A stretch of 64,000 nucleotides of DNA from an uncultured Eubacteriales bacterium (GCA_900318765.1 ONLX01000015.1:5955-69954), one strand, 5' to 3'. Positions 1 to 41,206 are shown, numbered from the stretch's first letter. Notes: generated from the letters alone by a model not told the origin. Translations and numbers: made by a program.

Positions 1-587
1 AGCCCCCGATCATGAAGGCGCTGACGACCAAGAAAGAGCGTATGATCGTCATGGAACAGCTTCGTCCGGTCTCGCAGGCGGAGAAGATCCTGTTCCCGAT
101 CGTCGTTACGATTTTTGTTTCCTTGCTCGTTCCGAGCGCAGCTCCGTTGGTTGGATGTCTGATGCTCGGCAATTTGTTCCGTGAGTGCGGCGTGACCGAA
201 CGTCTTTCCAAAACGGTGCAGAATGAATTGTGCAATATCGTTACGATTTTCCTCGGCGTCTGCGTCGGCGCAACGGCAACGGCAAATACGTTTATTAATT
301 GGACGACCATTGCGATTATCGTTCTCGGTGTCATTGCATTCATGGGCGGTACGGCCGGCGGCGTCCTGCTTGCCAAATTCATGAACCTGTTCCTTAAGAA
401 GAAGATCAATCCGTTGATCGGATCAGCAGGCGTTTCCGCCGTTCCGATGGCGGCGCGCGTAAGCCAGGTTGTCGGACAGAAGGAAAACCCGAAAAACTTT
501 CTGCTCATGCATGCTATGGGTCCGAACGTTGCCGGCGTTATCGGCTCTGCGATCGCAGCCGGTGTCTTCCTCTCTCTGTTCCGGTAA
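1..587 (+). CDS. oadB: Na+-translocating decarboxylase beta (membrane) subunit, OadB/GcdB/MmdB family; 5' end lies outside the window
   Basis: The reading frame is open to the window edge ([24 protein letters not shown]...). The product is polytopic and hydrophobic, with the C-terminal family motifs [13 protein letters not shown] and [14 protein letters not shown]. It is followed 12 nt later by a carboxyltransferase gene. Confidence 0.85.
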
Positions 588-599
588 GGAGGTGCGTTT

Positions 600-2033
600 A
601 TGTCAAAACTGTATATTACCGATACGATTCTGCGTGACTCGCATCAGTCGCTTGCTGCGACGCGTATGCCGATCTCCGATATGCTCCCCGCATGCGAAAT
701 CCTCGATTCCATTGGTTATTGGTCGTTGGAAGTCTGGGGAGGAGCGACCTTTGACGCCTGCCTACGCTTCCTGAATGAGGATCCGTGGGAAAGACTGCGC
801 ACACTTCGCAAGCATCTTCCGAACACCAAACTGCAGATGCTGTTTCGCGGGCAAAATATCCTCGGATACAAGCATTATGCCGACGATGTTGTCGAGCAGT
901 TCTGCCGGAAAGCGATTGAAAACGGGATCGACGTCATTCGCATTTTCGACGCGTTGAACGATCCGCGCAACCTTGAGGCTGCGATTAAGTACACAAAGAA
1001 ATACGGCGGCATCTGCGAACCGGCGATTTCCTATACCACGTCCCCGGTACACAGCGAGGATTATTTCGTCAAACTGGCGAAAGAATTGGTTCAGATGGGC
1101 GCGGATACGATTTGCATCAAAGATATGGCAAACCTTCTGTTGCCGTACGATGCCTATTCGCTTGTCAAGCGGTTGAAGGCCGAAGTGGATGTTCCGATTC
1201 ATCTGCATACGCATAACACCTCCGGTACCGGTGATATGACGTACCTGATGGCAATGCAGGCCGGTGTGGATATTGTTGATACGGCGTTGTCTCCCTTCGG
1301 CAACGGTACTTCACAGCCGGCAACGGAACCGCTTGTTGCTACATTGAAAGGACAGGAACGGGATACCGGCCTCGATCTGAATGCGCTTTCGGAGGCTGCA
1401 AAGCATTTCCGCAAGGTATTCGATCGGATGAAGAAGGAAGGGCTGATTTCCGACAAATCTCTTCGTGTTGATACGAATACGCTGCTTTACCAGGTTCCGG
1501 GCGGAATGCTCTCTAACCTGATCAGTCAGCTGAAACAGGCGAACGCGGAGGATCGTTATTACGAAGTGCTCGCCGAAGTGCCGCGTGTACGGAAAGATTT
1601 CGGATATCCGCCGCTCGTTACGCCGACCAGCCAAATCGTCGGCTCTCAGGCTGTTCTGAACGTACTGATGGGGCGGTATAAGAGCTTTACGAAGGAATCC
1701 AAGGGCTTACTGCGCGGCGAGTATGGTAGACTTCCCGGCGAAGTGAATGAGGAAGTTCGCAAAAAGGCGATCGGGGATGCCGAAGTGATCACCTGCCGCC
1801 CGGCCGATCTGTTGGAACCGGAACTGGAAAAATACCGCTCTGAGATCAAAGATCGCATTCGCCAGGAAGAAGATGTTCTCAGCTATGCGCTGTTCCCGCA
1901 GGTTGCGACGAAATTCTTCGATGCGCGTGATGCAGCGGAAGCTGCTAAGAATGCGCCCGTAAAGATGCAGGAGGAAGCGGTTGACGAGAATGCCGTTCGG
2001 GAACTGTACGTTGAGGATCTGACCGTTCGATGA
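600..2033 (+). CDS. oadA: Oxaloacetate decarboxylase alpha / 5S-type carboxyltransferase subunit with no fused biotinyl domain
   Basis: AAGGAGG RBS at 586-592. The N-terminus ITDTILRDSHQSLAATRM and the HLHTHNTSGTG metal-binding motif are typical of the HMGL-like pyruvate carboxyltransferase domain. The 477 aa protein ends without a lipoyl-like domain or an (A/V)MKM biotinylation site. Confidence 0.85.
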   Translation: MSKLYITDTILRDSHQSLAATRMPISDMLPACEILDSIGYWSLEVWGGATFDACLRFLNEDPWERLRTLRKHLPNTKLQMLFRGQNILGYKHYADDVVEQFCRKAIENGIDVIRIFDALNDPRNLEAAIKYTKKYGGICEPAISYTTSPVHSEDYFVKLAKELVQMGADTICIKDMANLLLPYDAYSLVKRLKAEVDVPIHLHTHNTSGTGDMTYLMAMQAGVDIVDTALSPFGNGTSQPATEPLVATLKGQERDTGLDLNALSEAAKHFRKVFDRMKKEGLISDKSLRVDTNTLLYQVPGGMLSNLISQLKQANAEDRYYEVLAEVPRVRKDFGYPPLVTPTSQIVGSQAVLNVLMGRYKSFTKESKGLLRGEYGRLPGEVNEEVRKKAIGDAEVITCRPADLLEPELEKYRSEIKDRIRQEEDVLSYALFPQVATKFFDARDAAEAAKNAPVKMQEEAVDENAVRELYVEDLTVR

Positions 2034-2710
2034 AACAGATTCCGAACATTCTGACTTCTCTTCGTATTGTGTTGACCGGCGTATTCGTTTGGCAATTCTT
2101 CGATGCGCTTTCGACCGCGACTGACCCGTCGAATTCCGTCGGTGTTGCTGCATTCTGGATTCCGCTGATTATCTATGCCGTCGCGTTTTTGACGGATATT
2201 CTTGACGGATTTTTGGCAAGAACGTTCGGCTGGGTAACTCCGGTCGGAAAGATTCTGGATCCACTCGCGGATAAGCTGATGGGGGTAGCGGCACTGATAT
2301 GCATCCTTATCGGCAAATTCTGTCTCGAATCCCGTACAATTGCGATTCTTTATGCAGTCGTTTTCGGGTTGATCGTTCTGAAAGAGCTGCTGATGTTTAC
2401 CGGCGGCGCGATCATGTTGAAGCATCATAAGGTTGCATATGCCGATTGGTATGGAAAGATTGCAACAGGCGTATTTACCGCAGGCGTAATCTTATCTCTT
2501 CTGAGCTTCGTTCTGCCCGTGATTGAGCCGTGGAACCTGATCGTCTTGGGTATATCGGTTGTTATCTCGTATGCAGCGATGGTACATTACGCAAAAACGC
2601 AGTTGTTTGCACCCAAGTCCGATCGACCGGCGTCCGAGGACGAACAAAAACTGTTCGACCGTGTTGACCGAGTCGTTGGGAATCGCGGAAACAAGACTTT
2701 ATCGAAATAA
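2030..2710 (+). CDS. pgsA: CDP-alcohol phosphatidyltransferase (phosphatidylglycerophosphate synthase-like)
   Basis: Exact CDP-OH-P transferase signature DILDGFLAR-x8-GKILDPLAD (D-x2-DG-x2-AR-x8-G-x3-D-x3-D). Multi-TM protein. The ATGA overlap with the upstream gene suggests translational coupling. Confidence 0.85.
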   Translation: MKQIPNILTSLRIVLTGVFVWQFFDALSTATDPSNSVGVAAFWIPLIIYAVAFLTDILDGFLARTFGWVTPVGKILDPLADKLMGVAALICILIGKFCLESRTIAILYAVVFGLIVLKELLMFTGGAIMLKHHKVAYADWYGKIATGVFTAGVILSLLSFVLPVIEPWNLIVLGISVVISYAAMVHYAKTQLFAPKSDRPASEDEQKLFDRVDRVVGNRGNKTLSK

Positions 2711-4938: not shown

Positions 4939-7395
4939 ATGGCGAATTATCTTGAAACTGCAAAACAATTAAAGGAAGATCTTCAGATGCTTCTGTCGTC
5001 TGTTGAGTCCACGAAGGCATCTTTGGGGAAGTTGCTGGATTCGGCGCGTCGGAACGAAGGGAAGTTGATCGACATAGAAGAAGCCCAAAAGGCAGCAAAA
5101 CTGGAGCAGGAGCGGAAAGAGCGTCTTGCTTCGATCCTTGCGAGCGAAAGCGATCTTGCCGTGCACGTCGGCGGAACCGAGGAACCGGAGCCTGTCGCTG
5201 TGCAGCAAGCGGAAGCATCGGAACACGTTCGCGAAGAACCACTCCCCAAAGCGGTTCCGGCACGTACAGAGACGAATGATCGTTCTCAGCGAAATCAGCA
5301 GGAACGGCCGCCGCGCCAGGACAATCGTCCGCAGCGGCAGGAAAACCGTGCGCCGCAGGCCGGCAACCGTCCGCAGCCGAATCGCAATCAGAGCGCGCAG
5401 ACGCAGCAAGGCTCGCGAGCGGTTGTAATCAATACGCCGACTTCTTCGGATCGTGCGCGTACGGACAAAAAGAAGAATTACGACACACAGGACAAGAAGG
5501 CGAAAAATAAAAAGACTATGCAAAAAGAAGCCGGACCGTCCGCTCGCGGATGGGAAGACGATACGCAGATGGGCAATCGCCGCAAAGTTCGTCGCGGTTC
5601 GCAGGAGGTTTCGTCGCCGAAGCCCGCTCCGATTGTGATCGAGCATGCCGTAATCAACGGGGAGACCATTACGGTGAAGGATCTGTCCGAGAAGCTCGGC
5701 AAACCTGCCAATGAGCTGCTGAAGAAGCTGCTGATGCTTGGCATCATTGCAAATATCAATCAGGAAATCGACTTTGATACCTGTGAGCTGATCGCCGGAG
5801 AATTTGGCATCACCCTTGAAAAACAAGTTGCCAAAACGATGGAAGAGACCCTGCTCGAAGCCGCAGAAGATGCTGATCCCGAGGATAAGCTTAAGCCTCG
5901 TCCTCCGGTCGTTACGATCATGGGCCACGTCGACCACGGTAAGACGTCGCTGCTTGACGCGATTCGGAATTCTCATGTGACCGCGGGCGAAGCGGGCGGT
6001 ATCACGCAGCATATCGGCGCGTATACGGTCACGCTGAACGATCGTCAGATCACGTTTATCGATACGCCCGGCCATGAAGCGTTTACGGCGATGCGCGCAC
6101 GCGGCGCTCAGGTTACGGATATCGTTATTTTGGTTGTTGCCGCGGATGACGGAATTATGCCGCAGACGGTGGAAGCCATCAATCATGCGAAGGCAGCGGG
6201 CGTTCCGATTGTTGTTGCGATCAATAAGATCGACCGTGATACGGCCGATCCGGAGCGGGTGAAACAGCAGCTGACCGAGCATGGACTCGTTTCGGAAGAA
6301 TGGGGCGGTGACACAATCTGCGTTCCGGTTTCCGCAAAGAAACAGATCAATCTGGACACCCTATTGGAGATGGTACTGCTCCAGGCGGATGTTCTCGAGC
6401 TTCGCGCCAATCCGGACCGCCTTGCGAAAGGAACGATTATCGAAGCGGAGCTTGATAAAGCAAGAGGCCCGGTAGCTACGGTTTTGGTTCAGAACGGTAC
6501 GCTGCATAAGGGCGATACAATCGTGGCTGGTACGGCTTATGGCAGAGTTCGCGCAATGATGGACGATAAGGGCCGCGTTGTGAATGCTGCGGGACCTTCT
6601 ACCCCTGTGGAAGTACTCGGCTTTAACGAAGTTCCGGATGCGGGCGATATGCTCTTTGCGGCAGACGATGACAAGCTCAACCGTCAGGTAGCGGAAGAAC
6701 GGCGTGATCGGATCAAGGCAGCGCAAATTAAGCAGCAGCAGAAAGTGTCGCTGGACGATTTGTTCAGTCAGATGGCCGAAGGCGAGCTGAAGACACTGAA
6801 CCTGATCATTAAAGCGGATGTGACCGGCTCGGTGGAAGCGGTCAAACAGGCGCTTGAAAAGCTTTCCAACGACGAAGTACGCGTTCGTTGCATTCACAGC
6901 GGCGTCGGCGCAATTACGGGAAGCGATATTATGTTCGCATCTGCTTCCAACGCGATCGTCATCGGGTTTAACGTTCGTCCGGATTCGACCGCACGCACAA
7001 CGGCCGAGAAGGAGAAGGTGGATGTACGCACCTACCGCGTGATTTACAATGCGATTGAAGACGTTGAGAACGCGATGAAGGGCATGTTCAAGCCGGTTTA
7101 TCAGGAAGTGGATCTCGGTCGCTGCACGGTTCGGGAAACCTTCCGCATCTCCGGCGTCGGAACGATTGCCGGTGCCTATGTCAATGAAGGCAAGGTCGTT
7201 CGCAATGCGCAGATCCGCGTTGTTCGCGGCGGTATCGTTCTGCACGACGGCAAGATTGCTTCTTTGAAGCGGTTTAAAGACGATGCAAGAGAAGTGCTTG
7301 CCGGGTATGAATGCGGTATTTCCATTGAGAATTTCAACGATATTCTTGTGGATGACGTGATTGAATGCTATACGGTGGAGGAAGTTCAGCGGTAA
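4939..7395 (+). CDS. infB: Translation initiation factor IF-2
   Basis: GTPase motifs [20 protein letters not shown] and NKID, followed by the conserved C-terminal domains. The N-terminal region is variable and rich in R/Q/N/P. Confidence 0.97.
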
Positions 7396-7766
7396 TGGCC
7401 AAGGTCAGAATGGAACGACTCAGCGAAGAGCTGAAAAAAACGGTCAGCGCGGTGATTTTCGATATGAAGGATCCGCGGATACCGGTCGTCACTTCGATTA
7501 CGGCAATGGAAGTAACGCCCGATCTGAAGTATGCCAAAGCGCATGTATCCATCTACGGAGAGGATGCGAATGCGACAAAAGAAGCAGTCGCCGCATTGAA
7601 TCATGCGGCAGGCTTCATTCAGCATGAGGTTGGCAATCGCATGACCATCCGGCGCGTCCCGCAGATCAAATTCGTCGGAGACGATTCGATCGCATATTCG
7701 GTTCATATCTCCGAAGTTCTGCGCTCCCTTCATAAAGATGCATCGAACGAGGAGCCTCAAGAATGA
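7395..7766 (+). CDS. rbfA: Ribosome-binding factor A
   Basis: [22 protein letters not shown]... matches the RbfA family. The TAATG overlap with the infB stop fixes the start at 7395. Confidence 0.92.
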   Translation: MAKVRMERLSEELKKTVSAVIFDMKDPRIPVVTSITAMEVTPDLKYAKAHVSIYGEDANATKEAVAALNHAAGFIQHEVGNRMTIRRVPQIKFVGDDSIAYSVHISEVLRSLHKDASNEEPQE

Positions 7767-8740
7767 ACCTTGCATGCGCTAAACAGTTCTTTGAATCGCA
7801 TAACGATTTTGTATTGGCAGCCCATCGTTCACCGGACGGTGATACGTTGGGCTCTTGCCTTGCATTGAGTCGCGCTTTGCAATCCCTTGGAAAACACGCG
7901 ATTGTTGCCTGTGTTGATGCAGTACCCAAGTATTTACGCTTTTTGTCCGGAAGCGATACGGTCGTTTCATCCGTTTCAAAGATTCCGGAAGCTGCCGTTT
8001 ACATCGATTGCGGCGATCATTCCCGCGCAGATGCTTTAGAACCGTTTCTGGAGCAATGTGCGTTTCGTTTCTGCATCGATCATCACGGAACGAACCCGAA
8101 GAATACCAAGGACGGAGACTGGGTCGAAGAAGTCGGTGCAACAGGGGAATTGATCTATCGGCTGTTGACGAAGATGCAGATTCCGATTGACCGTGAGATT
8201 GCCGTTTGTTTGTTCACTGCGATCGCGACCGATACCGGCAATTTTTCGTATTCCAACACTACATCGGATACCTTTCGGATCGCAGGAGAACTTTTGCAAT
8301 ACGGCATCGACCTTCCCGAACTGAATCGAATTCTGTTTCGTACAGTGCCTTTGAACAAGGGAAAACTGATCGCATACACGTTGGAGAACGTTACCCTTGC
8401 CGAGGAGAATTCCGTCGGGATTGTTTGTCTCAATCGGGATACGCTTGCTCGGTTTTCTGCAGAGGAATCCGATTGTGAAGGATTGATCGATTACGTTCGC
8501 GATCTTGCTCCCGTGGAAATCGCATGTACCCTGCGGGAATCGTCGGACGGAAAGATTCGCGGAAGTCTTCGGTCCAAATGGGGGGCAGACGTCTCGGAAA
8601 TTGCCACGCAATTCGGCGGTGGCGGACATTCGCGTGCAGCCGGATTCACGCTCTGCGTCCCTATGGAGAAAGCGAAAGAGCTCGTTCTATGTAAAATGGT
8701 GGAAGCGGTGAGAAAATGGAAGGCATCGTTGCAGTCTTAA
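7763..8740 (+). CDS. nrnA: DHH/DHHA1 phosphoesterase (NrnA-like oligoribonuclease / pAp phosphatase)
   Basis: Motifs HRSPDGDTLGS, DHH (CIDHHGTN) and DHHA1 GGGGHSRAAG. ATGA overlap with rbfA. Confidence 0.88.
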   Translation: MNLACAKQFFESHNDFVLAAHRSPDGDTLGSCLALSRALQSLGKHAIVACVDAVPKYLRFLSGSDTVVSSVSKIPEAAVYIDCGDHSRADALEPFLEQCAFRFCIDHHGTNPKNTKDGDWVEEVGATGELIYRLLTKMQIPIDREIAVCLFTAIATDTGNFSYSNTTSDTFRIAGELLQYGIDLPELNRILFRTVPLNKGKLIAYTLENVTLAEENSVGIVCLNRDTLARFSAEESDCEGLIDYVRDLAPVEIACTLRESSDGKIRGSLRSKWGADVSEIATQFGGGGHSRAAGFTLCVPMEKAKELVLCKMVEAVRKWKASLQS

Positions 8741-9603
8741 AACCACCTGCCATGTCGTCAAACGATGTTGTGGTGGATATTCGAAAGCTTTTCGGCATAA
8801 AGCGCGTCGGTCATCTCGGGACTTTGGACCCGGAGGCGGCCGGCGTTTTGCCGGTATGCGTCGGCAGAGCCGTCCGATTGTTTGATTATCTCGTTGACAA
8901 ACAAAAGGAATACCTTGCCGAAATTTCATTTGGCATTGCAACCAACACACAGGATGCACAGGGAACCGTTACGGAGCGCTGCGATACAATCATCCGAAGC
9001 GAACAGCTGACCGCTGTGCTTTCTCAATTTCTGGGATCCGGAGAACAGATCGCGCCGATGTATTCGGCTTTGAAGTACAATGGAAAAAAGTTGTATGACC
9101 TTGCGCGCAGCGGAACGGAAATTCCGGAGAAACGACGCGAGATTGTGATTGATTCGATTCAACTGATTGCGCAAACCGCGCCAAATCGGTTTCTGATTCG
9201 TGTGAAATGCTCGCGCGGAACCTATATCCGCACGCTTTGCGCCGATATCGGGTCTGCCCTGAATGTTCCGTCCCATATGTCATTTTTGCTTCGGACTTCC
9301 TCCGGACCGTTTGATCTGAATCGGTCCTTCACGATCCCGGAACTCTATCGACTGAAAGAAGCAAATCGGCTTTCCGATTCGCTGACTTCCTGCGAAGATG
9401 CACTGCAATTCATGCCGGCTTGCGTGCTGCACCCAGATCGGTTGCGTCCTTCGCTGAATGGATTGGAAACGAATCTGAACCGTCCCGTCCGTGGGTTTGT
9501 CCGACTTTATGCCGCCGATCGATTCCTCGGTATCGGCAGATCAAGCGAAGGATCGGTAAAACTGATTGTAAACTTATTAGAAAACGATTCGGATTTTCGA
9601 TAA
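8716..9603 (+). CDS. truB: tRNA pseudouridine-55 synthase TruB
   Basis: KPPAMSSNDVV and the catalytic-Asp motif GHLGTLDPEAAGVLPV. Conserved position after rbfA and nrnA. Confidence 0.93.
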   Translation: MEGIVAVLKPPAMSSNDVVVDIRKLFGIKRVGHLGTLDPEAAGVLPVCVGRAVRLFDYLVDKQKEYLAEISFGIATNTQDAQGTVTERCDTIIRSEQLTAVLSQFLGSGEQIAPMYSALKYNGKKLYDLARSGTEIPEKRREIVIDSIQLIAQTAPNRFLIRVKCSRGTYIRTLCADIGSALNVPSHMSFLLRTSSGPFDLNRSFTIPELYRLKEANRLSDSLTSCEDALQFMPACVLHPDRLRPSLNGLETNLNRPVRGFVRLYAADRFLGIGRSSEGSVKLIVNLLENDSDFR

Positions 9604-13231: not shown

Positions 13232-13588
13232 ATGTCTGACATCATTCGTGAACTCGAAAAAGAACAGCTTCGCAACGATCTGCCTGAACTCGAAATCGGC
13301 GATACCGTCCGTGTTTTCGTGAAGGTCGTTGAAGGCAACCGTGAGCGTCTTCAGAACTTTGAAGGCATCGTCATCAAAATTCAGGGCGGCGGCATCCGCA
13401 AGTCCTTTACAGTTCGTCGTATGTCCTATGGCATCGGCGTAGAGCGTACTTTCCCGTACAACAGCCCGCGTATTGGCCGGATCGAAGTCCTTCGTCACGG
13501 CGTTGTTCGCAGAGCAAAGCTCTATTATCTGCGTGACAGAAGCGGTAAGGCTGCGAAGATTCGCGAGCGCATCGACGAGAAGAAATAA
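13232..13588 (+). CDS. rplS: 50S ribosomal protein L19
   Basis: The [26 protein letters not shown] and [16 protein letters not shown] motifs, with an AAAGGAG RBS. Confidence 0.97.
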
Positions 13589-13605
13589 GTCCACTAGTAT
13601 TTGTG

Positions 13606-13640
13606 CAACGACCTTTCGATTCGAAGGGTCGTTGTTTTTT
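13606..13640 (+). terminator. Rho-independent terminator after rplS
   Basis: A 13 bp stem, CAACGACCTTTCG / CGAAGGGTCGTTG (one G-U pair), with a 3 nt loop, followed by TTTTTT. Confidence 0.85.
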
Positions 13641-14659: not shown

Positions 14660-15278
14660 ACAGGAGCGGCTTCTTACCATTTCTCGGATCGATCGGGAAT
14701 TCTGGGCGCAGGACGGGATCGTTCTTGCCGGTATGGATGAAGTCGGAAGAGGACCGCTTGCGGGACCCGTTGTTGTTGCATGCGTCGTTATGCCGCCCGA
14801 ACCGTTGATCCCGTATATCAATGATTCCAAAAAGGTATCGGAGAAACGGCGTGAAATGCTTTATGAGCAGATTCTTCACACGGCCGTGGAGGTTCAGACT
14901 GCCTGGATCGAGCCGGATGTGATCGATCGAATCAACATCCTGGAGGCAACCAAGTTGGCTTTTGCGGATGCCTTTGCCAAAATGCAAACGCCTGTTACGG
15001 ACGTCATGATTGATGCGTTAACGGGATTGAATATCGCTGCGCGGCAGCATCCGCTCATTCACGGCGATGCGCTTTGTTACTCCATAGCGGCCGCATCGAT
15101 CGTAGCGAAGGTGGAACGGGATCACTACATGATTGAGCAGGACAAGCTGTATCCGCAATATGGTTTTGCTCGGAACAAAGGCTACGGAACGCAGGAGCAT
15201 ATGAACGCCATCCGCGAATTCGGAATGACTCCGATTCACAGAAGGTCGTTTTTGAAAAAGTTTTATGAGAACAATTGA
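14643..15278 (+). CDS. rnhB: Ribonuclease HII
   Basis: GMDEVGRGPLAGPVV, DSKK and SIAAASIVAKVERD motifs. ATG at 14643 overlaps the end of rbgA. Confidence 0.93.
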   Translation: MAQKNEQERLLTISRIDREFWAQDGIVLAGMDEVGRGPLAGPVVVACVVMPPEPLIPYINDSKKVSEKRREMLYEQILHTAVEVQTAWIEPDVIDRINILEATKLAFADAFAKMQTPVTDVMIDALTGLNIAARQHPLIHGDALCYSIAAASIVAKVERDHYMIEQDKLYPQYGFARNKGYGTQEHMNAIREFGMTPIHRRSFLKKFYENN

Positions 15279-15615
15279 CGCGGGGAAACGCGGGGAAGAG
15301 ATTGCCGAAAAAGCGTTGCATAAGGCGGGAATGAAGACGCTTGCGCGCAATTACCGATTCGGGCATTGCGAGTTGGATCTTGTCATGCAGGAACGGAAAA
15401 CCGGAACAATTGTTTTTGTGGAAGTGAAAGCAAGAAGCAAAGATACCGTTGCGTTTCCGCGTCAGTCCGTTACCTGGAAGAAGCAACAGAATCTTCGCAA
15501 GGCCGCGCTTGGGTACTGCGCCGAAAACGGTCTGACAGAACAACCCTGTCGATTTGACGTTGTGGAAGTTTGGCTCGACGACGCGCATGTCGAACAGTTT
15601 GAAAACGCATTTTAA
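15265..15615 (+). CDS. yraN: YraN-family (UPF0102) endonuclease-like protein
   Basis: KRGEEIAEKALHKAGMKTLARNYR..GELDLV....TIVFVEVKARS matches the YraN family. Conserved position after rnhB. Confidence 0.88.
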   Translation: MRTIDAGKRGEEIAEKALHKAGMKTLARNYRFGHCELDLVMQERKTGTIVFVEVKARSKDTVAFPRQSVTWKKQQNLRKAALGYCAENGLTEQPCRFDVVEVWLDDAHVEQFENAF

Positions 15616-15641
15616 GTACAGAACAGTCGGAGGAAGAGATT

Positions 15642-18047
15642 TTGAAAAGAAGATCGTATGCAGCCATTCTTACGTTGATGCTTTGCGCTGTAATACTGAT
15701 CGGCTGTGCCGGCTCCAATGGAGTATCGAAGGAATCATTTGATTTTCGGGAGTGTTCCGAGGACGGACTTCCGATCGGATGGAGCGTCGTTTCTTATGAG
15801 AACAGCTCTTCCGTAACCTGCGAAGACGGCGTGGTTACGATTGCTTCGGATACGTTGAATGACTGTCGGCTCGTGCATGACATCCCTGTTGCGGCAAGCA
15901 CGCGCTATGTTCTCCGGGCCGAGCTATGCACGGAAGGCGTTTCAGACGGAGAAGGCGCAACGCTGTCGATCGATAATTACAGCATTGACGGCAGCTATCT
16001 GTATTCCAACGGCGTTTACGGAACAAACGATTGGGAAACCGTCACGCTGGCATTTGAAACGGCAAAGTCTCAGGAGTCCGTTCGGATTGCGCTGCGACTC
16101 GGCGGGTATTCAAGCGTTTCCGAGGGCGTCGCCCGGTTTCGCAACATCACCGTCGAAAAAAGCGACAGCGCACCGGTTCCGTTTCAAAAGCTTGCAACAC
16201 GCTCTTCGCAAACCAAAGCGTCCGAAAAGGCAGAGGGTTCCTATGAAGCGTTATTCTCTCTGATCGCCTGGTCGACGATTTTTGCGGCGGCAGCGCTTCT
16301 TTATGGCATCTATCGGCATTTCGATTCTCTGCAAGCAGCTTCACTTCCAAAGCGCACCGGATATGCGATCTTTGCCGCAGTTGTCCTCATCGGATTCGTC
16401 ATCCGATTGCTTCTTTGCAGCGTTTATCAAGGTCATGCGACCGATATGAGCTGCTGGATCGCATGGGGAAATCAGATCGCGAACGGCGGTTTTGCGACGT
16501 TCTATGATGGAACATGGTACGATTACCCGCCGGGATATATGCTGATCCTCGGTGGGATGCAGACTCTGATGCGCGTTCTGCACGTTGCGGATTGGGAAAG
16601 CGAAACGCTTCGTTTGTTCTGGTATATGCTGCCTGCATTTTTGGCGGATATCGGATGCGGACTTTTGATTCTTCGATTCTGCAAAGAACAGGATTGCCCG
16701 GATGCAATAGGTCTGACGCTTGCCGGATTGATCGTACTGAACCCTGCGGTATTCTTCCTATCCGGGGCATGGGGACAGATTGATTCGATCCTGACGCTGT
16801 TCCTTTTGCTTTCCTTTGAAGCGCTTCGCAAAGATCGACGTATTCTGTGCGGAATCTGGTTTGCGATCGCGGTACTGATCAAATGGCAGGCATTGATTTA
16901 CGGTCCGGTTCTTGCCATCGTTTATATCGCTACGCTTGCAACGCAAAAGGATCGGAGATTGCAAAGAACGGATCTGATCAAGTCGGTTGTCGCAGTCGCA
17001 TCTTCGCTGCTGCTGATCTTTTTGGTATCTCTGCCGTTTCGCGGAACGATGTCTCCTTTTTGGATCGTGGAACGCTTCTTCAAAGCGTCCTCCGGTTATG
17101 ACTATGCCACGGTGGAGGGGTACAATTTCTTTGCGCTGCTCGGCGCGAATTGGACACGTGCGGATGCGGATTTGTTCCGCGGAGCTTCTGCAGGCGGTGC
17201 GCTCCTGAACGCGCTCAGCACGGCCGGAAAGCTTGTTTTTCCGACAGCGATCGTTTGGATCGGCTTCGAATCGGTGCGGGATTTTAAAACTCGCAACGGG
17301 ATCGGATCCTACCTGACATTGGGCTTTATGGCGTTGGCATTCGGAATCATTCAGCTGATCACATTTGCATTCCCGGAAGCCGAATCCTTCTACTGGGTTT
17401 TGCTTGGAACGGTCGGTGTGCTCGGAATGATCGGATGGTTGCTGCAGAATGCGAAGCTGTCCGAGCTGAAAACATTCTTATCGACAAACGACAGCGCGTT
17501 CTATGGTTCGGTGATCGGGCTCCTCGGTCTTATCCTTCCGATTGGCTGCTGGATTCTTTGGCTGATCGGTAAACTGCTCCCGCAGGGGTTTACCTTCAAG
17601 ATGTTCGGGATCATTGCGATTGTTGCTGCGCTTGGCGGGGTCATCTGGATGGTTTTCCGGTATACTCGTGCGGACAGAATGCATGAACGCGATCCGGAAG
17701 TATTGTACCTGACTGCGGCATGCTTTATGCTCTGGGTGTTTACGTTCGGACATTATATGCATGAGCGCTATGTTTTTCCGGTCTTGATTCTGCTGCTGTT
17801 CGCTTATGCGGGCAGTAAGGATAAGCGGATTTTGCTTGCAGCGCTGCTGCTGAGCGTTACGACATTCTTGAATGAGCAGGTCGCCATGTACGTTGTTTCG
17901 GACGGCGCGATCGACGCCATCCGCGGAGGAGAACGACACAATCATTTTCTCGCGGTCTGTTCGGCATTGGAGGTTCTCTCAACCTTCTATCTGACGACAG
18001 CCGTGGTTCGTAAGGAGATCGCACTTGGGAAAGGAGTGAAGGCATGA
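15642..18047 (+). CDS. Large GT-C-fold membrane glycosyltransferase-like protein with a lipobox signal and an N-terminal CBM-like beta-sandwich domain
   Basis: TTG start after GGAGGAAGAG. The signal peptide ends in the lipobox LIGC (Cys22). A soluble ~160 aa region (GWSVVSYEN...NDWETVTLAFE...RFRNITVEK) resembles CBM4/9-type jelly rolls. It is followed by many TM helices and a first-loop motif, HATDMSCWIAWGN...YDYPPGYMLILG...AWGQIDS, typical of polyprenyl-phosphate-dependent GT-C enzymes (PMT_2 / PIG-V / DUF2029-like). The exact family is unresolved. Confidence 0.7.
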   Translation: MKRRSYAAILTLMLCAVILIGCAGSNGVSKESFDFRECSEDGLPIGWSVVSYENSSSVTCEDGVVTIASDTLNDCRLVHDIPVAASTRYVLRAELCTEGVSDGEGATLSIDNYSIDGSYLYSNGVYGTNDWETVTLAFETAKSQESVRIALRLGGYSSVSEGVARFRNITVEKSDSAPVPFQKLATRSSQTKASEKAEGSYEALFSLIAWSTIFAAAALLYGIYRHFDSLQAASLPKRTGYAIFAAVVLIGFVIRLLLCSVYQGHATDMSCWIAWGNQIANGGFATFYDGTWYDYPPGYMLILGGMQTLMRVLHVADWESETLRLFWYMLPAFLADIGCGLLILRFCKEQDCPDAIGLTLAGLIVLNPAVFFLSGAWGQIDSILTLFLLLSFEALRKDRRILCGIWFAIAVLIKWQALIYGPVLAIVYIATLATQKDRRLQRTDLIKSVVAVASSLLLIFLVSLPFRGTMSPFWIVERFFKASSGYDYATVEGYNFFALLGANWTRADADLFRGASAGGALLNALSTAGKLVFPTAIVWIGFESVRDFKTRNGIGSYLTLGFMALAFGIIQLITFAFPEAESFYWVLLGTVGVLGMIGWLLQNAKLSELKTFLSTNDSAFYGSVIGLLGLILPIGCWILWLIGKLLPQGFTFKMFGIIAIVAALGGVIWMVFRYTRADRMHERDPEVLYLTAACFMLWVFTFGHYMHERYVFPVLILLLFAYAGSKDKRILLAALLLSVTTFLNEQVAMYVVSDGAIDAIRGGERHNHFLAVCSALEVLSTFYLTTAVVRKEIALGKGVKA

Positions 18048-20149
18048 AAAAAACGTTGATCCATGCAAATCCGATTCCCTCTTCGCGAACCTTGACCCAG
18101 AAGGATCGCCTACTGTTGCTTGCGTTGATGGCGGTATACGCGATCGTCGCGTTTGTCAACCTGGGGACAACGGCCTTTCCGACCCATCCATGGATCGGCG
18201 AAACCGAAGAAACGGTGATTATTGATCTCGGAACCGAATGCGATGTTTCTCAGATCTGGCTGAACGGCAACATTGCCGAAGGCACGATTCGGTTTTATGA
18301 CGATTCAGATCATTATACGGAAGTCAAACAAGATTTTGGTGATATGTTCAAATGGAAACAATGCAACGTTCCTTTGCATACACGCTATGTAAGATTGTTT
18401 GTCGCTTCCGGCAATGCGGCGTTCAATGAGATTGCAATCTTTGATGCGAACGGCAATCGGATCGATGCTTCGATCTATGTGCAGTACGACGCAAGAGGCG
18501 TTGATCAATTCCCGAATCAGCAGGCTCTGCTCGACGAGCAGAATACGGTTCCGAGCGAACCATCCTATCTCAACGGGATGTACTTTGACGAGATATATCA
18601 TGCGCGTACCGCTTATGAGATTGTTACGGATACAAATCTGTACTTTGAAGGAAAACGTGTCGGCGTAACGGATTTCTCCTATGTGCGCGACAACGGCTTT
18701 TCTATCTATGAGTGGACGCATCCGCAGCTTGGAAAAGTTCTGATCGCACTCGGCGTTCGCATTTTCGGTATGAATCCGTTTGGATGGCGGTTTACCGGTA
18801 CGCTGTTCGGCGTGTTGATCCTTTGGGTGCTGTATGCTTTGGCGAAGCGGATCTTTCGGAGAACCGAATATGCGTTCCTGACAGCGGGTTTGTTTGCGGT
18901 TGACTGTATGCATTTTTCTCAAACGCGTATTGCAACGATCGATGTTTATGCGTTGTTCTTTACGCTGCTGATGTTCCTGTTCATGCTGGATTATATGGAA
19001 CAGAATCGAACAGATGCACCGTTTGAAAAGCAGATGCTCTCGCTTGGACTTTGCGGGCTTGCCTTCGGACTCGGTGCATCCAGCAAATGGACCTGTCTGT
19101 ATTCCGGAGCGGGACTTGCCGTGCTGTTTTTCACACAGTTTATCGCTCGATGCGTTTCGTGGTTCCGGGATCGGAAGGAATCCAAAAAACACGGCATGCA
19201 GGTCGGAAAGATTGTGATCAATCCGATTCCGCTTCTGCCCGTTCTGTATACGCTCGGCGCATTTGTGCTGTTTGCGGCAGCAAAGCTTTCCCACCCGTCG
19301 CAGGGATTTTTCTATCGGGTCAAGTACGATTGGGAATGGTACGATTTGATTTTGGCCAACGGATTCTGGATTCCGATGCTTTTCCTGTCGGTTGCGGCAA
19401 TCGTTTCGGCATTCCTGTTTCGACGGTTCACAAAAGGCAAGGACTTTGATCTTCGGTGGAATCGGCAATGTATGACATTGGTTCTGTGCTGCGTGTTCTT
19501 TATCCTGATTCCGGTCATCCTGTATTACGCGTCTTCGTACAGCTTTTACCTGTCCGAAAATCGCAATACGCTGCATGAACAGCTGCAATGCCTTTGGGAT
19601 AAGCAAAAAAGCATGTATGCGTACCATGCCGGTCTGGATGCTACGCATCCGTGCCAGTCGAACTGGTATGAATGGTTCTTTGCCGAGAAGTCGGTTTGGT
19701 TCTATGCAGGGTATCCGGACGGGAAGCTTTCGAATATCTCAAGCACCGGGAATCCTGCGGTCTGGTATGTTTCGGCCATCCTTGCGCTTTTGATGTTGAT
19801 TCGGATCGTTTTTCATAAGGATGATCGTAAAAATCGAAGCTATTGGGTTGTCATCGTCGGAATTCTTTCCGGAATTCTTCCATGGGTGTTTGTGTCCCGG
19901 TGCGTATTCCTGTATCATTACTTCTCCGCGCTGCCCTTTGTGATGCTTGCGGGGATCGCGTTCCTGTACGAAGCAGAAAAACAGTATCCGCAGGTAAGGA
20001 CCATCCGTTGGATATGGCTCGGCGTTTCGGCGGCATTCTTCCTTCTCATGTATCCTGCTATCTCCGGTTTACCGATGGAATTCGGATATGCGGGATTCAT
20101 TGAACATGTGCTTACGATTTTCGGAAAGGTTTTTTATGTCAGCGTCTGA
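18044..20149 (+). CDS. GT39-like (protein O-mannosyltransferase family) phospholipid-carrier-dependent glycosyltransferase with a discoidin-like domain
   Basis: ATGA overlap with the upstream gene. After TM1 there is a ~90 aa segment (IDLGTECDVSQIWLNGN...RYVRLFVASGNAAFNEIAIFD) resembling F5/8 type C domains. The loop-1 DE motif MYFDEIYHARTAYE and HPQLGKVLIALGVRIFGMNPFGWRF follow. The C-terminal region (NPAVWY...LYHYFSALPF) resembles PMT_4TMC. Confidence 0.8.
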   Translation: MKKTLIHANPIPSSRTLTQKDRLLLLALMAVYAIVAFVNLGTTAFPTHPWIGETEETVIIDLGTECDVSQIWLNGNIAEGTIRFYDDSDHYTEVKQDFGDMFKWKQCNVPLHTRYVRLFVASGNAAFNEIAIFDANGNRIDASIYVQYDARGVDQFPNQQALLDEQNTVPSEPSYLNGMYFDEIYHARTAYEIVTDTNLYFEGKRVGVTDFSYVRDNGFSIYEWTHPQLGKVLIALGVRIFGMNPFGWRFTGTLFGVLILWVLYALAKRIFRRTEYAFLTAGLFAVDCMHFSQTRIATIDVYALFFTLLMFLFMLDYMEQNRTDAPFEKQMLSLGLCGLAFGLGASSKWTCLYSGAGLAVLFFTQFIARCVSWFRDRKESKKHGMQVGKIVINPIPLLPVLYTLGAFVLFAAAKLSHPSQGFFYRVKYDWEWYDLILANGFWIPMLFLSVAAIVSAFLFRRFTKGKDFDLRWNRQCMTLVLCCVFFILIPVILYYASSYSFYLSENRNTLHEQLQCLWDKQKSMYAYHAGLDATHPCQSNWYEWFFAEKSVWFYAGYPDGKLSNISSTGNPAVWYVSAILALLMLIRIVFHKDDRKNRSYWVVIVGILSGILPWVFVSRCVFLYHYFSALPFVMLAGIAFLYEAEKQYPQVRTIRWIWLGVSAAFFLLMYPAISGLPMEFGYAGFIEHVLTIFGKVFYVSV

Positions 20150-20615
20150 AAAGAAAGGGATTGTACAGTTCATTCAGTTCATTTTGGTCGGCGTACTGAA
20201 CACGCTTGTGGATCTGGTTGTGACAAGATTGCTGCAGGTCGGATTCGGGCTCTTGACAAATCAGTTGCTTTTGACCTACTATATTCCTAAAGTCATCGGA
20301 TACGCCTGCGGTATCGTCAACAGCTATGTTCTGAATACGGCATGGACGTTTCAGAAGGAGCGCAAACGCGATGCAAGAGAGATTATCTCGTTTCTGATCA
20401 TCAATGCGCTGACGCTCGGCGTTTCACTCGGACTGATGTTTTTGTTCCGAAACGTATTCGGGCTTTCGAATTGGTGGAACAATGTGATTTCGATCGATTG
20501 GATTCTTCGGATAATCCCGGGCGATTTTTTCTGCACGCTGCTGTCCTCGGGGATCGCACTCGTGCTGAATTTTCTGGGAAACAAACTGATCGTTTTTGCA
20601 AAGCGCAAAGCCTAA
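20136..20615 (+). CDS. GtrA-family membrane protein (putative lipid-linked sugar translocase)
   Basis: QFIQFILVGVLNTLVDLVV, YVLNTAWTF and NFLGNKLIVF in a four-TM protein of ~159 aa. ATG at 20136 overlaps the upstream gene by 14 nt. Confidence 0.85.
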   Translation: MSASEKKGIVQFIQFILVGVLNTLVDLVVTRLLQVGFGLLTNQLLLTYYIPKVIGYACGIVNSYVLNTAWTFQKERKRDAREIISFLIINALTLGVSLGLMFLFRNVFGLSNWWNNVISIDWILRIIPGDFFCTLLSSGIALVLNFLGNKLIVFAKRKA

Positions 20616-20648: not shown

Positions 20649-22169
20649 ATGCTGGCAAAAGTCTACAGCTACGGCTTGATCGGATTAAACGGCTTCTTGG
20701 TTACGGTAGAAGCCTCCATCATGAACGGAATCGGCAATTATCAGACGGTCGGTCTTCCCGATACGGCGGTCAAAGAATCCAAAGAACGGATCCATGCGGC
20801 AATCCGCCAGTCCGGAATGTCATATCCGGTGGCGAATATCATCGTAAACCTTGCTCCTGCTGATCTCAGAAAGGAAGGATCGATTTATGATCTCCCGATT
20901 GCGCTTGCCATTTTGCAGGCGTCCGGCCAGATTCGCCCGATCCCGGAGAATACGATTGCGCTCGGCGAGCTCGCCTTGGACGGAACAATCCGACCGGTCA
21001 ACGGCGTTCTGCCGATGATGATTGACGCGTTTGCAAATGGGTATAAAGAGTTCTTTATCCCGTGGGAAAATGCAGCGGAGGCATCGTATATCGATGGAGC
21101 GACTGTTTATGCGGTACATTCGCTCAACGAATTGCTTCGGCATCTGAACGCGTCGGAACCGCTTGCGCCGATTCCGATCCGGAGCTTTTCGGGAGAATTG
21201 GTCAGCTCCTCCTTCGACTTTTCCGAAATCAAAGGGCAGGAAGCTGCAAAGCGTGCCGCAGAGGTTGCGGTGGCGGGCGGCCATAATATGCTTTTATGCG
21301 GTACACCGGGATCCGGAAAGACCATGCTTGCAAGAGCGATTCCGTCAATCCTCCCGGAAATGACCTTTTCGGAAGCTCTGGAAGTAACGAAGATTCATTC
21401 GATTACGGGACGCATGAAGGGCAGCGACGGGTTGATGGTCGAACGTCCCTTTCGCGCGCCGCATCACGGTGCGAGCGCGTCGGCTTTGATCGGAGGGGGA
21501 ACGAAAGCGCTTCCGGGCGAGATCAGCCTCGCGCATAACGGGGTTCTGTTCTTAGACGAGTTTCCGGAATTTCAGCGGCAGGTCCTCGAATCGCTTCGCC
21601 AACCGTTGGAAGATGGGGAAGTGACGGTTTCACGCGCATCAGCCAACGCGACATATCCCGCGCGCTTTATCCTGATTGCGGCGATGAATCCCTGCCCCTG
21701 TGGGAACCGAGGATCCAAAACCAAAAAATGCACTTGCACGCCCTCACAGATCCGAAGATATGCTTCTCGGGTTTCCGGCCCACTGCTCGATCGGATCGAT
21801 CTCCATATTGAGATGACCGAGGTCGGGTATCATGAGATCACCGAGCGCAGACCTGCGGAATCTAGTGCATTGATCCGCGAACGCGTCAAGGCGGCGAGAT
21901 TGATTCAGGCAAAACGGTTTCAAAACGACGGAATCCGAACCAATGCGCAGATGAACAGTCGACTGGTGCAAACGTATTGTACGCCGACCGGGACTGCCGA
22001 AACAATGCTGCAGGCTGCATTTACACGGCTTCACCTTTCGGCAAGAGCGTATCAACGGGTTCTGAAGGTCGCCAGGACGATTGCCGATCTGGACGGTGAA
22101 TCGGAAATCCTGCCGAAGCATTATGCCGAGGCGATTCAGTACCGCAGCACGGAGCTTTTGAAAGTGTAA
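20649..22169 (+). CDS. comM: YifB/ComM-family Mg-chelatase-like AAA+ ATPase
   Basis: Lon-protease-like N-domain (MLAKVYSYGLIGLNGFLVTVE), Walker A GTPGSGKTMLA and LFLDEFPEF. Positioned upstream of dprA. Confidence 0.92.
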   Translation: MLAKVYSYGLIGLNGFLVTVEASIMNGIGNYQTVGLPDTAVKESKERIHAAIRQSGMSYPVANIIVNLAPADLRKEGSIYDLPIALAILQASGQIRPIPENTIALGELALDGTIRPVNGVLPMMIDAFANGYKEFFIPWENAAEASYIDGATVYAVHSLNELLRHLNASEPLAPIPIRSFSGELVSSSFDFSEIKGQEAAKRAAEVAVAGGHNMLLCGTPGSGKTMLARAIPSILPEMTFSEALEVTKIHSITGRMKGSDGLMVERPFRAPHHGASASALIGGGTKALPGEISLAHNGVLFLDEFPEFQRQVLESLRQPLEDGEVTVSRASANATYPARFILIAAMNPCPCGNRGSKTKKCTCTPSQIRRYASRVSGPLLDRIDLHIEMTEVGYHEITERRPAESSALIRERVKAARLIQAKRFQNDGIRTNAQMNSRLVQTYCTPTGTAETMLQAAFTRLHLSARAYQRVLKVARTIADLDGESEILPKHYAEAIQYRSTELLKV

Positions 22170-40108: not shown

Positions 40109-41206
40109 ATGAAAAAAAGAGCCGTACTGCTGATGGCGCTGATTCTGTGCCTTCTGCTTTGCATCAATGAAACGTATGCCGAAACGGGGACCGCGGAGTT
40201 TTCCGCGTCTGTTTCGTCGGAAGAAGTTGTTGTCGGTGAGAAAGTGTATGTAAAACTCTCCGTGAAATCCAATCTTCCCTCGGGCGAAGCGTTAAACACC
40301 TGGAAGGGAACGTTCTCTTACGATCCGGAAGCGCTCACCTATGCCGGCTTTTCCGTTCAGGATGAAACGATCAAAAAAGATTCGGTTGCCGGGCTGGACA
40401 GCGTCTGGGCGGTAAACGACGCGACTCCCGGAACTCTTGAGCTCGGTTTTGCAAATGCGTATGGCTGTTCGGGGGACGGCTATCTTGTTACGCTGCTGTT
40501 TCAGTCTGTTAAAGAGGCATCGGCAACGATCACTTTAAAAGACAGTTCATACAGCGTGTACTACTCCGACTCGGGCGCAGTTTCAACCTATACGCTTCCG
40601 GAACAAAAGCTTATTACGCTTTCAATTAAGGAACCGATCCCGACCGCAACTCCTACGGCGACGCCGGATCCAACCGCAACACCGGAGCCGACCGCGACAG
40701 CAACACCCTCGCCGACGGCCACGCCGACAGTCAAGCCGACGCCGACCGAGGACCCCGATGACGATGATGACGATGATGATGACGATCCGACGCCGTACCC
40801 GACCAGACGACCGACGGCTACTCCGACGCGGAGACCAACGGCTTCGCCTTCTCCGACGCCGACACCGACGCCTACCCCCACGCCGACGGTCGCACCGACG
40901 ATTGCTCCTACGGCGAGTCCGACCGCTACGCCGACAGCAACGCCCAAAACGGGTCGCGTCATTACGGACGGTGAAGGTGGTTGCAGCTCCTGCAGCAACA
41001 CGTCGCTCGGGATTCTGATTCTGGACATCGGCATTGCGTTCTTGGCGGTTCAGATGATTATTGTTGTCTTGATCATCTATCGCAAACGGAGACAGGCCAA
41101 GAAAGGGTTCTTAAACGACGATGACGAGCCCGATCCCGAGGATCCCGATTCGGATCTTTTCGATGATTCGGAGGATTCCGAGGACGATATCGATATGAAG
41201 CATTAA
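40109..41206 (+). CDS. Membrane-anchored surface protein: signal peptide, cohesin-like domain, Pro/Thr-rich linkers with a 10-Asp run, a C-terminal TM helix and an acidic cytoplasmic tail
   Basis: Signal peptide MKKRAVLLMALILCLLLCINETYA. The ~140 aa domain VVVGEKVYVKLSVKS...WKGTFSYDPEALTY...GYLVTLLFQSVK follows the cohesin pattern. It is followed by PTATPTATPDPTATPEPTATATPSPTATPT, DDDDDDDDDD and PTPTPTPTPTPT. The TM helix is LGILILDIGIAFLAVQMIIVVLIIY and the tail is DDDEPDPEDPDSDLFDDSEDSEDD. There is no LPXTG, SLH or dockerin motif. Confidence 0.7.
   Translation: MKKRAVLLMALILCLLLCINETYAETGTAEFSASVSSEEVVVGEKVYVKLSVKSNLPSGEALNTWKGTFSYDPEALTYAGFSVQDETIKKDSVAGLDSVWAVNDATPGTLELGFANAYGCSGDGYLVTLLFQSVKEASATITLKDSSYSVYYSDSGAVSTYTLPEQKLITLSIKEPIPTATPTATPDPTATPEPTATATPSPTATPTVKPTPTEDPDDDDDDDDDDPTPYPTRRPTATPTRRPTASPSPTPTPTPTPTPTVAPTIAPTASPTATPTATPKTGRVITDGEGGCSSCSNTSLGILILDIGIAFLAVQMIIVVLIIYRKRRQAKKGFLNDDDEPDPEDPDSDLFDDSEDSEDDIDMKH
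40634..40950 (+). repeat. Low-complexity coding repeat: degenerate ACN-CCN (Thr-Pro) units interrupted by a (GAY)10 poly-Asp block at 40757-40786
   Basis: Direct reading shows reiterated ccgacggc/acgccgac units. The same tract produces mirror low-complexity ORFs on the opposite strand (GVGVGV). Confidence 0.85.

Follow-up and report, generated by a model that had tools for sequence, protein, structure and literature searches.

Among Actinobacteria, protein O-mannosylation is started by Pmt, a member of glycosyltransferase (GT) family 39, and elongation of the glycan is carried out by PimE, a GT87 enzyme (PMC12757957). The mycobacterial Pmt has further been predicted to heterodimerise with the GT87-like protein ML2687c, which is devoid of catalytic residues, in an arrangement resembling Pmt1-Pmt2, and a GT87-GT39 fusion has been reported in the Firmicute Paenibacillus (bioRxiv 10.64898/2026.07.15.738315). 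In the Clostridia, the GT39 protein Cbes_1864 of Caldicellulosiruptor bescii, 556 amino acids (aa) long and encoded in a glucan-degradation locus, carries a sugar-binding-like domain in its loop 1 (aa 32-124) and is required for O-glycosylation of the Pro/Thr linkers of secreted cellulases, a modification that shields the secreted enzymes from proteolysis (PMC6151902). The general framework described for Firmicutes involves a GT2 enzyme that makes a polyprenyl-phosphate-sugar, a GtrA-type protein thought to flip it and a GT-C enzyme that transfers the sugar outside (PMC8035078; PMC12041528). Here we describe three tightly packed genes, which we call GTC1, GTC2 and gtrA, between yraN and comM in a 64,000-nucleotide stretch of DNA (the whole of it henceforth referred to as the window) from an uncultured Eubacteriales bacterium (GCA_900318765.1, ONLX01000015.1:5955-69954). 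We interpret them as a module for lipid-carrier-dependent surface glycosylation, of which a two-enzyme protein O-glycosylation system is the best reading, with a probability that we put at roughly 0.55.

As far as the published description allows the two to be likened, Cbes_1864 resembles GTC2 in being a clostridial GT39 protein with an N-terminal transmembrane (TM) segment or signal, a sugar-binding-like domain in loop 1 and a GT-C body; for both a lipid-linked donor is presumed, and the acceptors of Cbes_1864 are Pro/Thr-rich linkers, one protein with such a linker being encoded in the window. It differs in its length and genomic setting, and the paper describes no GT87-like partner and makes no mention of GtrA, whereas GTC2 has 701 aa, a clear PMT_4TMC domain and a GT87-like partner (to which it is fused in relatives), with gtrA as the next gene downstream and a string of housekeeping genes around it. 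An earlier, sequence-only reading of this DNA had described the role of GT39 enzymes in Firmicutes as largely uncharacterised, which the work on Cbes_1864 (PMC6151902) shows to be out of date.

The actinobacterial system likewise combines GT39 and GT87-type GT-C enzymes, uses a polyprenyl-phosphate-sugar donor that comes from a separate GT2 and acts on Ser/Thr-rich regions of secreted proteins and lipoproteins. Its genes, however, are unlinked, its Pmt has no large extracytoplasmic domain and ML2687c lacks catalytic residues that GTC1 keeps, while in our case both enzymes carry lectin-like domains, GTC1 is a lipoprotein and GTC2 falls far below the threshold of the Pmt equivalog. The eukaryotic enzymes Pmt1-Pmt2 and Pmt4 (6p25, 9i5k, 9e61) share with GTC2 the loop-1 DE motif and a C-terminal four-TM region, and act as dimers in which a lectin-type domain faces the acceptor side; in them this domain is a MIR beta-trefoil in loop 5 and the partner is another GT39 protein, whereas GTC2 has a discoidin-like domain in loop 1 and a GT87-like partner.

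The Firmicute systems CsbB/GtcA/YfhO, GtlA/GtcA/GtlB and the streptococcal GtrB/PgtC2 follow the same three-component logic, often from scattered genes, and PgtC2 too glycosylates Ser/Thr-rich disordered regions of membrane-associated proteins (PMC8035078; PMC12041528). Their GT-C enzymes are YfhO or PMT_2-only proteins that act singly, and none has been described as a GT87-GT39 pair or fusion. Each component of the module comes from a described family and databases already label GTC2 and the fused relatives as GT39; nothing here is conceptually new. What is particular is the split, translationally coupled form, the lipoprotein anchor and CBM4-like module of GTC1, the discoidin-like loop-1 module of GTC2 and the deep conservation of the position between yraN and comM.

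Two GT-C enzymes of different families, usually found as one polypeptide

For comparison, 80 loci from species-representative genomes were fetched with ComM and the proteins of the window were mapped onto them; where single loci have to be told apart, they are given by L numbers. GTC2 is a bona fide GT39/PMT-family GT-C enzyme. It lies above the Pfam cut-offs for PMT (PF02366, 55.1 bits against 22.7), PMT_2 (57.1 against 26.1) and PMT_4TMC (PF16192, 56.8 against 32.4), and the NCBI label on an identical protein is "glycosyltransferase family 39 protein". Its AlphaFold 2 (AF2) model (predicted local distance difference test, pLDDT, 86.9; predicted template modelling score 0.88) retrieved with Foldseek Pmt4 9i5k (E 1.8e-9), Pmt1/Pmt2 6p25 and Pmt4 9e61 at the top, followed by AglB, ArnT and EmbC, at identities to the Pmt structures of merely 10-15%. 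Both residues of the DE motif, D182 and E183, are invariant in 39 GTC2 homologues, and the pattern F/Y-D-E-x-Y/H was present in each of the 85 fused representatives described below.

In the AF2 model, the strands of residues 50-133 of GTC2 sit between TM1 (residues 19-38) and the helix bearing the DE motif. The best Foldseek match of this domain is the carbohydrate-binding module (CBM) 32 structure 4a42 (E 0.07, 26% identity) and its best Pfam hit is F5_F8_type_C (18.6 bits, E 0.002, sub-threshold). No MIR domain was detected in GTC2 by Pfam, and bacterial Pmt enzymes are likewise without one (bioRxiv 10.64898/2026.07.15.738315).

GTC1 is not a second GT39 protein but a GT-C enzyme of the GT87/ALG6/PIG-M type, a point overlooked by the sequence-only reading. 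It scores above the Pfam cut-off for Alg6_Alg8 (28.3 bits, cut-off 25) and under that for GT87 (PF09594, 19 bits, cut-off 25); its orthologues in L007 (31 bits), L038 (30.5) and L050 (36.3) all exceed the latter, and many homologues carry a precomputed PF09594 annotation. A profile of the family matched PIG-M in the Protein Data Bank (PDB) at E 7e-9, and Foldseek matched the AF2 model (pLDDT 86.2) to ALG6 6snh (E 1.2e-3). PimE was not among the PDB sequence matches of the family profile at E <= 1, and the L050 orthologue had no PDB match at E <= 10, so the link between GTC1 and PimE is drawn from the Pfam GT87 scores and from residue position.

At its N-terminus GTC1 has a lipoprotein signal peptide, and the Cys after the hydrophobic stretch is kept in the family consensus. 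It is followed by an extracytoplasmic beta-sandwich (residues 30-173) that Foldseek matched to the CBM70 structure 4d0q (E 4e-8) and also to CBM16, CBM4 and CBM29; the family profile recovered 4d0q as well (E 4e-6). The Pfam score for CBM_4_9_1 is 18.9 bits in GTC1, below threshold, versus 26-30 bits in homologues. For both large proteins, then, Pfam, the AlphaFold models and Foldseek agree with what had been read from the sequence, i.e. the GT-C assignment and the guess at lectin-like domains of the CBM_4_9 type in GTC1 and of the F5/F8 type C (CBM32) type in GTC2, the folds matching and the sequence scores staying sub-threshold.

Conserved residues of GTC1 were compared over split and fused sequences, more than 45 of them, at identities of 24-60%. 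D268 (HATD), which in the AF2 model opens the first juxtamembrane helix (266-282) after a TM segment (238-262), does not vary among 39 GTC1 homologues or among six orthologues, fused or split, of other loci; D294 (DYPPGY), K414 and H707-E708-R709 (MHERY) are invariant too, in split and fused forms alike. D268 sits analogously to D58 of PimE and to the catalytic Asp of ALG6 (PMC12041525), and going by this position it may be their equivalent. Because of the invariance of these residues and the PimE/ALG6-like placement of D268, we would expect GTC1 to be an active transferase. Kyte-Doolittle hydropathy proved too coarse for fixing the membrane topology; the basic linker of the fused orthologues suggests that the C-terminus of GTC1 lies inside the cell.

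Three loci of other lineages have, just upstream of comM, a single lipoprotein of about 700 aa (L020 7947-9983, L041 6167-8350, L057 7676-9862) that has a CBM_4_9-type domain at its N-terminus and spans the membrane several times. Those of L020 and L041 match GTC1 at 24-25% identity where they align, and all three are without the H-x-T-D, K-W/P-Q and MHERY motifs. They may be degenerate or non-catalytic relatives of GTC1.

At five loci (L003, L007, L038, L043 and L059) the counterparts of GTC1 and GTC2 form one open reading frame (ORF) of 1285-1376 aa, in which the GT87-like half comes first, followed by a short basic linker and the GT39 half with its loop-1 beta-sandwich. Being basic, the linker is probably cytoplasmic. 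A database search with the L038 fusion found at least 120 clusters of fused proteins, with Pfam assignments to GT87, PMT, PMT_2 and PMT_4TMC, and in some cases to CBM_4_9_1, under names that include "glycosyltransferase family 39 protein" and "Gpi18-like mannosyltransferase". A search with the GTC1 family profile yielded 814 representatives at E <= 1e-30; among the top 150, 85 have at least 1200 aa, and every one of these contains a GT39 half (85/85). The split form in the window is therefore the minority form of what is usually a single polypeptide. That fusion prevails among relatives had escaped the sequence-only reading. In the window itself the two genes overlap at an ATGA (18044-18047), the stop codon of GTC1 (18045-18047) overlapping the ATG of GTC2 (18044). 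Fused in most relatives and overlapping here, the two enzymes appear functionally coupled, and the comparative evidence that they would act together is strong.

The product of the third gene matches the full length of the Pfam model GtrA_DPMS_TM (positions 1-117, 81.8 bits) and shows three to four hydrophobic segments by hydropathy, confirming that it is the GtrA protein it had been taken for. A gtrA gene also comes after the GT39 gene in L038, L050, L087, L088, L089 and L090.

Proposed mechanism, candidate acceptors and competing explanations

In the mechanism that we favour, a GT2 encoded elsewhere would charge undecaprenyl phosphate with a sugar on the inner side of the membrane, and GtrA would help to bring the lipid-linked sugar to the outer face. 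There, GTC2 and GTC1 would work jointly, probably as a heterodimer, in the way that the single fused polypeptide would in most relatives; the identity of the sugar and the formation of this complex are both things that we infer. The GT39 enzyme GTC2 would add the first sugar through its Asp-Glu loop-1 site, and the GT87-like GTC1 would elongate the glycan, recruit the acceptor, or do both, while the two lectin-like beta-sandwiches could keep the growing glycan or its acceptor close to the active sites. The acceptors would most likely be Ser/Thr residues within Pro/Thr-rich linkers on proteins that are secreted or displayed at the surface, and the module would be expressed along with the housekeeping string rbgA-rnhB-yraN...comM-dprA-topA.

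We consider proteins the better candidates for the acceptor, because GTC2 matches the PMT-specific models and structures and not PMT_2 alone, because Cbes_1864, the one clostridial GT39 protein to have been characterised and described with a like architecture, is needed for Pro/Thr-linker O-glycosylation, because the pairing of GT39 with GT87 is known from actinobacterial protein O-mannosylation, to which the preprint adds a predicted heterodimer and the Paenibacillus fusions, and because a surface protein that combines a cohesin domain with a Pro/Thr linker of about 105 aa is encoded in the window. This linker (40634-40950) is broken by a run of 10 Asp; after it the protein turns Cys-rich, is anchored by a TM segment and ends in a cytoplasmic tail that is acidic. 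No other ORF in the window reaches 15 Pro+Thr within 30 consecutive aa. A second Pro/Thr-rich tract, at about 51520-51650, belongs to an ABC substrate-binding lipoprotein; both tracts lie where the sequence-only reading had pointed to candidate acceptors. The secreted cohesin-domain protein suggests a cohesin-dockerin surface system in this organism. A literature search on cellulosome linker glycosylation brought up nothing directly useful. Close to the orthologous module in L087 we also noticed a dockerin-containing protein of 1759 aa.

Several points weigh against a protein O-glycosylation system. To begin with, GTC2 reaches only 50.9 bits against a cut-off of 800 for the actinobacterial Pmt equivalog (NCBIfam NF058602), so it is a distant member of the family and not a Pmt orthologue. 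Then, neither the window nor the 10 kb around any of about 90 related loci yielded a gene for the donor GT2. No GT2 polyprenyl-phosphate sugar synthase is among the genes called in the 64-kb window, going by their Pfam annotations, and tblastn with a GtrB-like consensus gave no match in the window or in 88 related loci; both bear out the remark of the sequence-only reading that this partner is lacking from the window. The consensus was validated on 5EKP GtrB (E 4e-80) and also on ArnC and DPMS, and together with the Pfam annotations it supersedes a first regular-expression screen for GT2, which was empty but too crude. As window and related loci yielded none, the GT2 gene would have to be elsewhere in the genome; scattered genes, a distant GT2 included, are common in such systems (PMC8035078). 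Finally, systems that decorate teichoic acid or wall polysaccharide have CBM-like domains and a GtrA partner just as typically (PMC8035078), and a place conserved among housekeeping genes could fit a core envelope polymer no less than proteins.

These last points lead to the main rival, in which the same chemistry would be directed at an envelope polymer (lipoteichoic acid, wall teichoic acid or a secondary wall polysaccharide) to which the lectin-like domains would bind. The layout that is standard for such systems in Firmicutes has GtrA and a GT-C enzyme, with the GT2 encoded at a distance, several such GT-C enzymes have PMT_2 and some of them extracellular carbohydrate-binding domains (PMC8035078), CBM-like folds are present on both GTC1 and GTC2, and the module is conserved in the manner of a core envelope function. 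Nevertheless, we regard a polymer acceptor as possible but clearly the less probable choice. GTC2 passes the cut-offs for PMT (PF02366) and PMT_4TMC and its nearest structures are protein O-mannosyltransferases, whereas the polymer-modifying GT-C enzymes in the review are PMT_2-only, YfhO or unassigned (PMC8035078); moreover, the clostridial GT39 protein with a like loop-1 domain acts on proteins (PMC6151902), and it is from protein O-mannosylation that the GT39/GT87 pairing is known.

A variant of the protein O-glycosylation reading would leave GTC2 as the sole catalytic subunit, with GTC1 a non-catalytic partner that recruits acceptors through its CBM-like domain, comparable to yeast Pmt2 or ML2687c. 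The predicted Pmt heterodimer of the preprint does have a GT87-like partner without catalytic residues, a fusion shows physical association and not catalysis, and the window protein is under the GT87 Pfam cut-off. Even so, we find this variant rather unlikely: the loop-1 Asp at the PimE/ALG6 position, Lys414 and His707-Glu708-Arg709 are invariant over the more than 45 sequences, and it is the proteins of L020, L041 and L057, in the same slot, that have lost these motifs and have the look of relaxed constraint.

Conservation of the slot between yraN and comM

The order rbgA-rnhB-yraN-GTC1-GTC2-(gtrA)-comM-dprA-topA recurs in L003, L007, L038, L043, L050 and L059. In L049 the same string runs through GTC2 after yraN and comM is inverted, and two loci at contig ends preserve only the last genes of the string (L027 and L001, the latter just gtrA before comM). 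Look-ups of distant homologues placed them in the same slot in L084 (on a 565-kb contig), L087, L088, L089 (OW818651.1) and L090, the last two being single-contig genomes of 3.4-3.9 Mb in which gtrA follows directly. Across the loci with the module that were fetched with ComM, identity of ComM to that of the window goes from 76% down to 50%, and the identities of GTC1 and GTC2 drop in step with those of ComM, DprA and TopA, as vertical descent would lead one to expect. The GC content of the module (0.46-0.53) is similar to that of its flanks (0.47-0.56), only short chance repeats were found around it and there were no mobility genes among the called genes. Across a large group of gut Clostridia, the module belongs to the conserved gene content of this chromosomal region.

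The sequence-only reading had taken yraN and comM to be normally adjacent and proposed that the module is a 5-kb accessory insertion. Comparison of the yraN-comM intervals speaks against this: the genes occupy one and the same slot in relatives that span a broad clade and whose ComM identity falls to about 50%, which is essentially the outcome that the reading itself had named as refuting. A recent acquisition as an accessory island, which might be suggested by a yraN-comM gap of 18 nt in one distant metagenome-assembled genome (MAG; L065), by the presence of rplS alone between the two genes in many Christensenellaceae-labelled MAGs and by the change of the slot over deep evolutionary time, is already contradicted and very improbable, given the slot shared by twelve loci (L003, L007, L027, L038, L043, L050, L059, L084, L087, L088, L089 and L090), the identities in step with ComM, DprA and TopA, the local GC content and the want of repeats and mobility genes. 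Some Christensenellaceae-labelled MAGs have rplS and a single divergent GT-C-like lipoprotein between yraN and comM. Since these other MAGs differ at the slot, it has been remodelled over deep time and not recently.

Other irregularities were seen along this string. The gene rplS (L19), together with the strong terminator after it (13232-13635), is upstream of rbgA in the window but rplS lies between yraN and comM in L006, L008, L010, L012, L016 and others, so that the housekeeping string has been rearranged between lineages. In L049, comM by itself (7388-8902) runs opposite to both rbgA-rnhB-yraN-GTC1-GTC2 and dprA-topA, which could reflect a local inversion or an assembly artefact. In L043 (4077-5743), ORFs of 163 aa and 392 aa lie between yraN and the GT87-GT39 fusion; by eye, their N-termini resemble an Lrp/AsnC-type regulator and an aminotransferase.

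Gene calls, surroundings and meaning of the module

The three genes are real and not chance ORFs, as GTC1 and GTC2 each have hundreds to thousands of homologues at E = 0. The source contig (ENA ERZ1029111 k87_2259583, 82 kb) has an independent set of gene calls, in which the identical three genes appear with 801, 701 and 159 aa, and a contig of the MAG GCA_016291865.1, from the same species, encodes a protein identical to that of the window. Within the features listed below, GTC1 starts at a TTG (15642) preceded by a GGAGG ribosome-binding site (15629-15633) and separated from the end of yraN (15615) by 26 nt; the stop codon of GTC2 (20147-20149) lies beyond the ATG of gtrA (20136), an overlap of 14 nt; and 33 nt separate the end of gtrA (20615) from the ATG of comM (20649). 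On re-check, the coordinates, overlaps and gaps of the sequence-only reading were all exact, and with them the translational coupling and the place of the module inside the rbgA-to-topA gene string were upheld.

Features of the module and its surroundings (positions in the 64-kb stretch; the last row gives positions within each related locus)
Feature	Position	Strand	Basis
Intrinsic-terminator-like hairpin after rplS, strong	13605..13635	+	14-bp stem then T-run; consensus scan
yraN (UPF0102), upstream neighbour	15265..15615	+	Pfam UPF0102 87 bits; NCBIfam YraN
GTC1, lipoprotein-anchored GT-C glycosyltransferase, GT87/ALG6/PIG-M type, 801 aa	15642..18047	+	
GTC1 signal peptide, lipobox L-I-G-C (Cys22)	15642..15707	+	read from sequence
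GTC1 extracytoplasmic beta-sandwich, residues 30-173, CBM4/16/29/70-like	15729..16160	+	Foldseek, profile
GTC1 Asp268, H-x-T-D motif, putative catalytic base	16443..16445	+	inferred from conservation and position
GTC2, GT39/PMT-family GT-C glycosyltransferase, 701 aa	18044..20149	+	
GTC2 beta-sandwich in extracytoplasmic loop 1, residues 50-133, discoidin/CBM32-like	18191..18442	+	AF2, Foldseek
GTC2 Asp182-Glu183 (YFDEIYHARTA), PMT loop-1 DE motif	18587..18592	+	conservation
gtrA (gene 3), GtrA-family small membrane protein, putative polyprenyl-phosphate-sugar translocase, 159 aa	20136..20615	+	
comM/yifB, Mg-chelatase-like AAA ATPase, downstream neighbour	20649..22169	+	TIGR00368 592 bits
Secreted cohesin-domain protein, speculative candidate acceptor	40109..41206	+	translation; Pfam Cohesin 27.5 bits (cut-off 24.1)
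GT87-GT39 fusions in related loci	L003 5011-8895; L007 5805-9662; L038 5471-9379; L043 5740-9870; L059 5938-9966		

A consensus scan found no terminator-like site in either of the gaps that flank the module, in line with the sequence-only reading, and the nearest strong one is the hairpin after rplS, which is likely the upstream boundary of the rbgA-to-topA transcription unit holding the module. This pattern fits, without proving it, co-transcription of the module with rbgA-rnhB-yraN and comM-dprA-topA. We rejected a functional tie of the glycosylation genes to comM and dprA (DNA uptake): inherited gene order is the simplest explanation of their vicinity and the tie has no other support. The gene calls of the source contig do not include an antisense ORF of 447 aa that lies wholly inside GTC2 (18305-19648, minus strand); in all likelihood this ORF is a by-product of how the coding strand opposite it is composed.

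Elsewhere in the window, a tRNA scan found no tRNA genes over the whole 64 kb and no Rfam family exceeded its gathering score, so no RNA element is involved; the window is nonetheless dense in translation genes (infB, rbfA, truB, ffh, rpsP, rimM, trmD, rplS). Positions 12-2710 (plus strand) hold genes resembling the beta and alpha subunits of oxaloacetate decarboxylase and then a CDP-alcohol phosphatidyltransferase gene, directly upstream of rimP-nusA. A gene at about 60447-60644 (minus strand) encodes a small acid-soluble spore protein, Pfam SASP being assigned in the matching locus L083, and hints at endospore formation by this organism.

In its most far-reaching form, the protein O-glycosylation reading would extend to an order-level clade of gut and rumen Clostridia (Christensenellaceae/Eubacteriales MAGs). 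There, a constitutive, housekeeping-linked general protein O-glycosylation machine would operate as an obligate GT87-GT39 heterodimer or fusion with both halves active, the GT39 half initiating and the GT87 half elongating the glycan, and the CBM4-like and discoidin-like modules would take the role that MIR has in eukaryotes. Such a machine would be the bacterial equivalent of Pmt1-Pmt2 and would offer a way of glycosylating the Pro/Thr linkers on cohesin/cellulosome-type surface proteins. Taken together, these propositions are tentative, and we would call their joint truth doubtful.

If the protein O-glycosylation reading is true, abundant and mostly uncultured gut Clostridia would glycosylate their secreted and surface proteins by a GT87-GT39 machine that travels with housekeeping genes. 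The split form described here, along with the fused form in relatives, provides comparative genomic support for the predicted Pmt-GT87 heterodimer, and the split/fused pair makes a convenient system for asking what role each half plays. On the practical side, linker glycosylation protects secreted enzymes of C. bescii from proteolysis (PMC6151902), and surface glycans shape the recognition between host and microbe.

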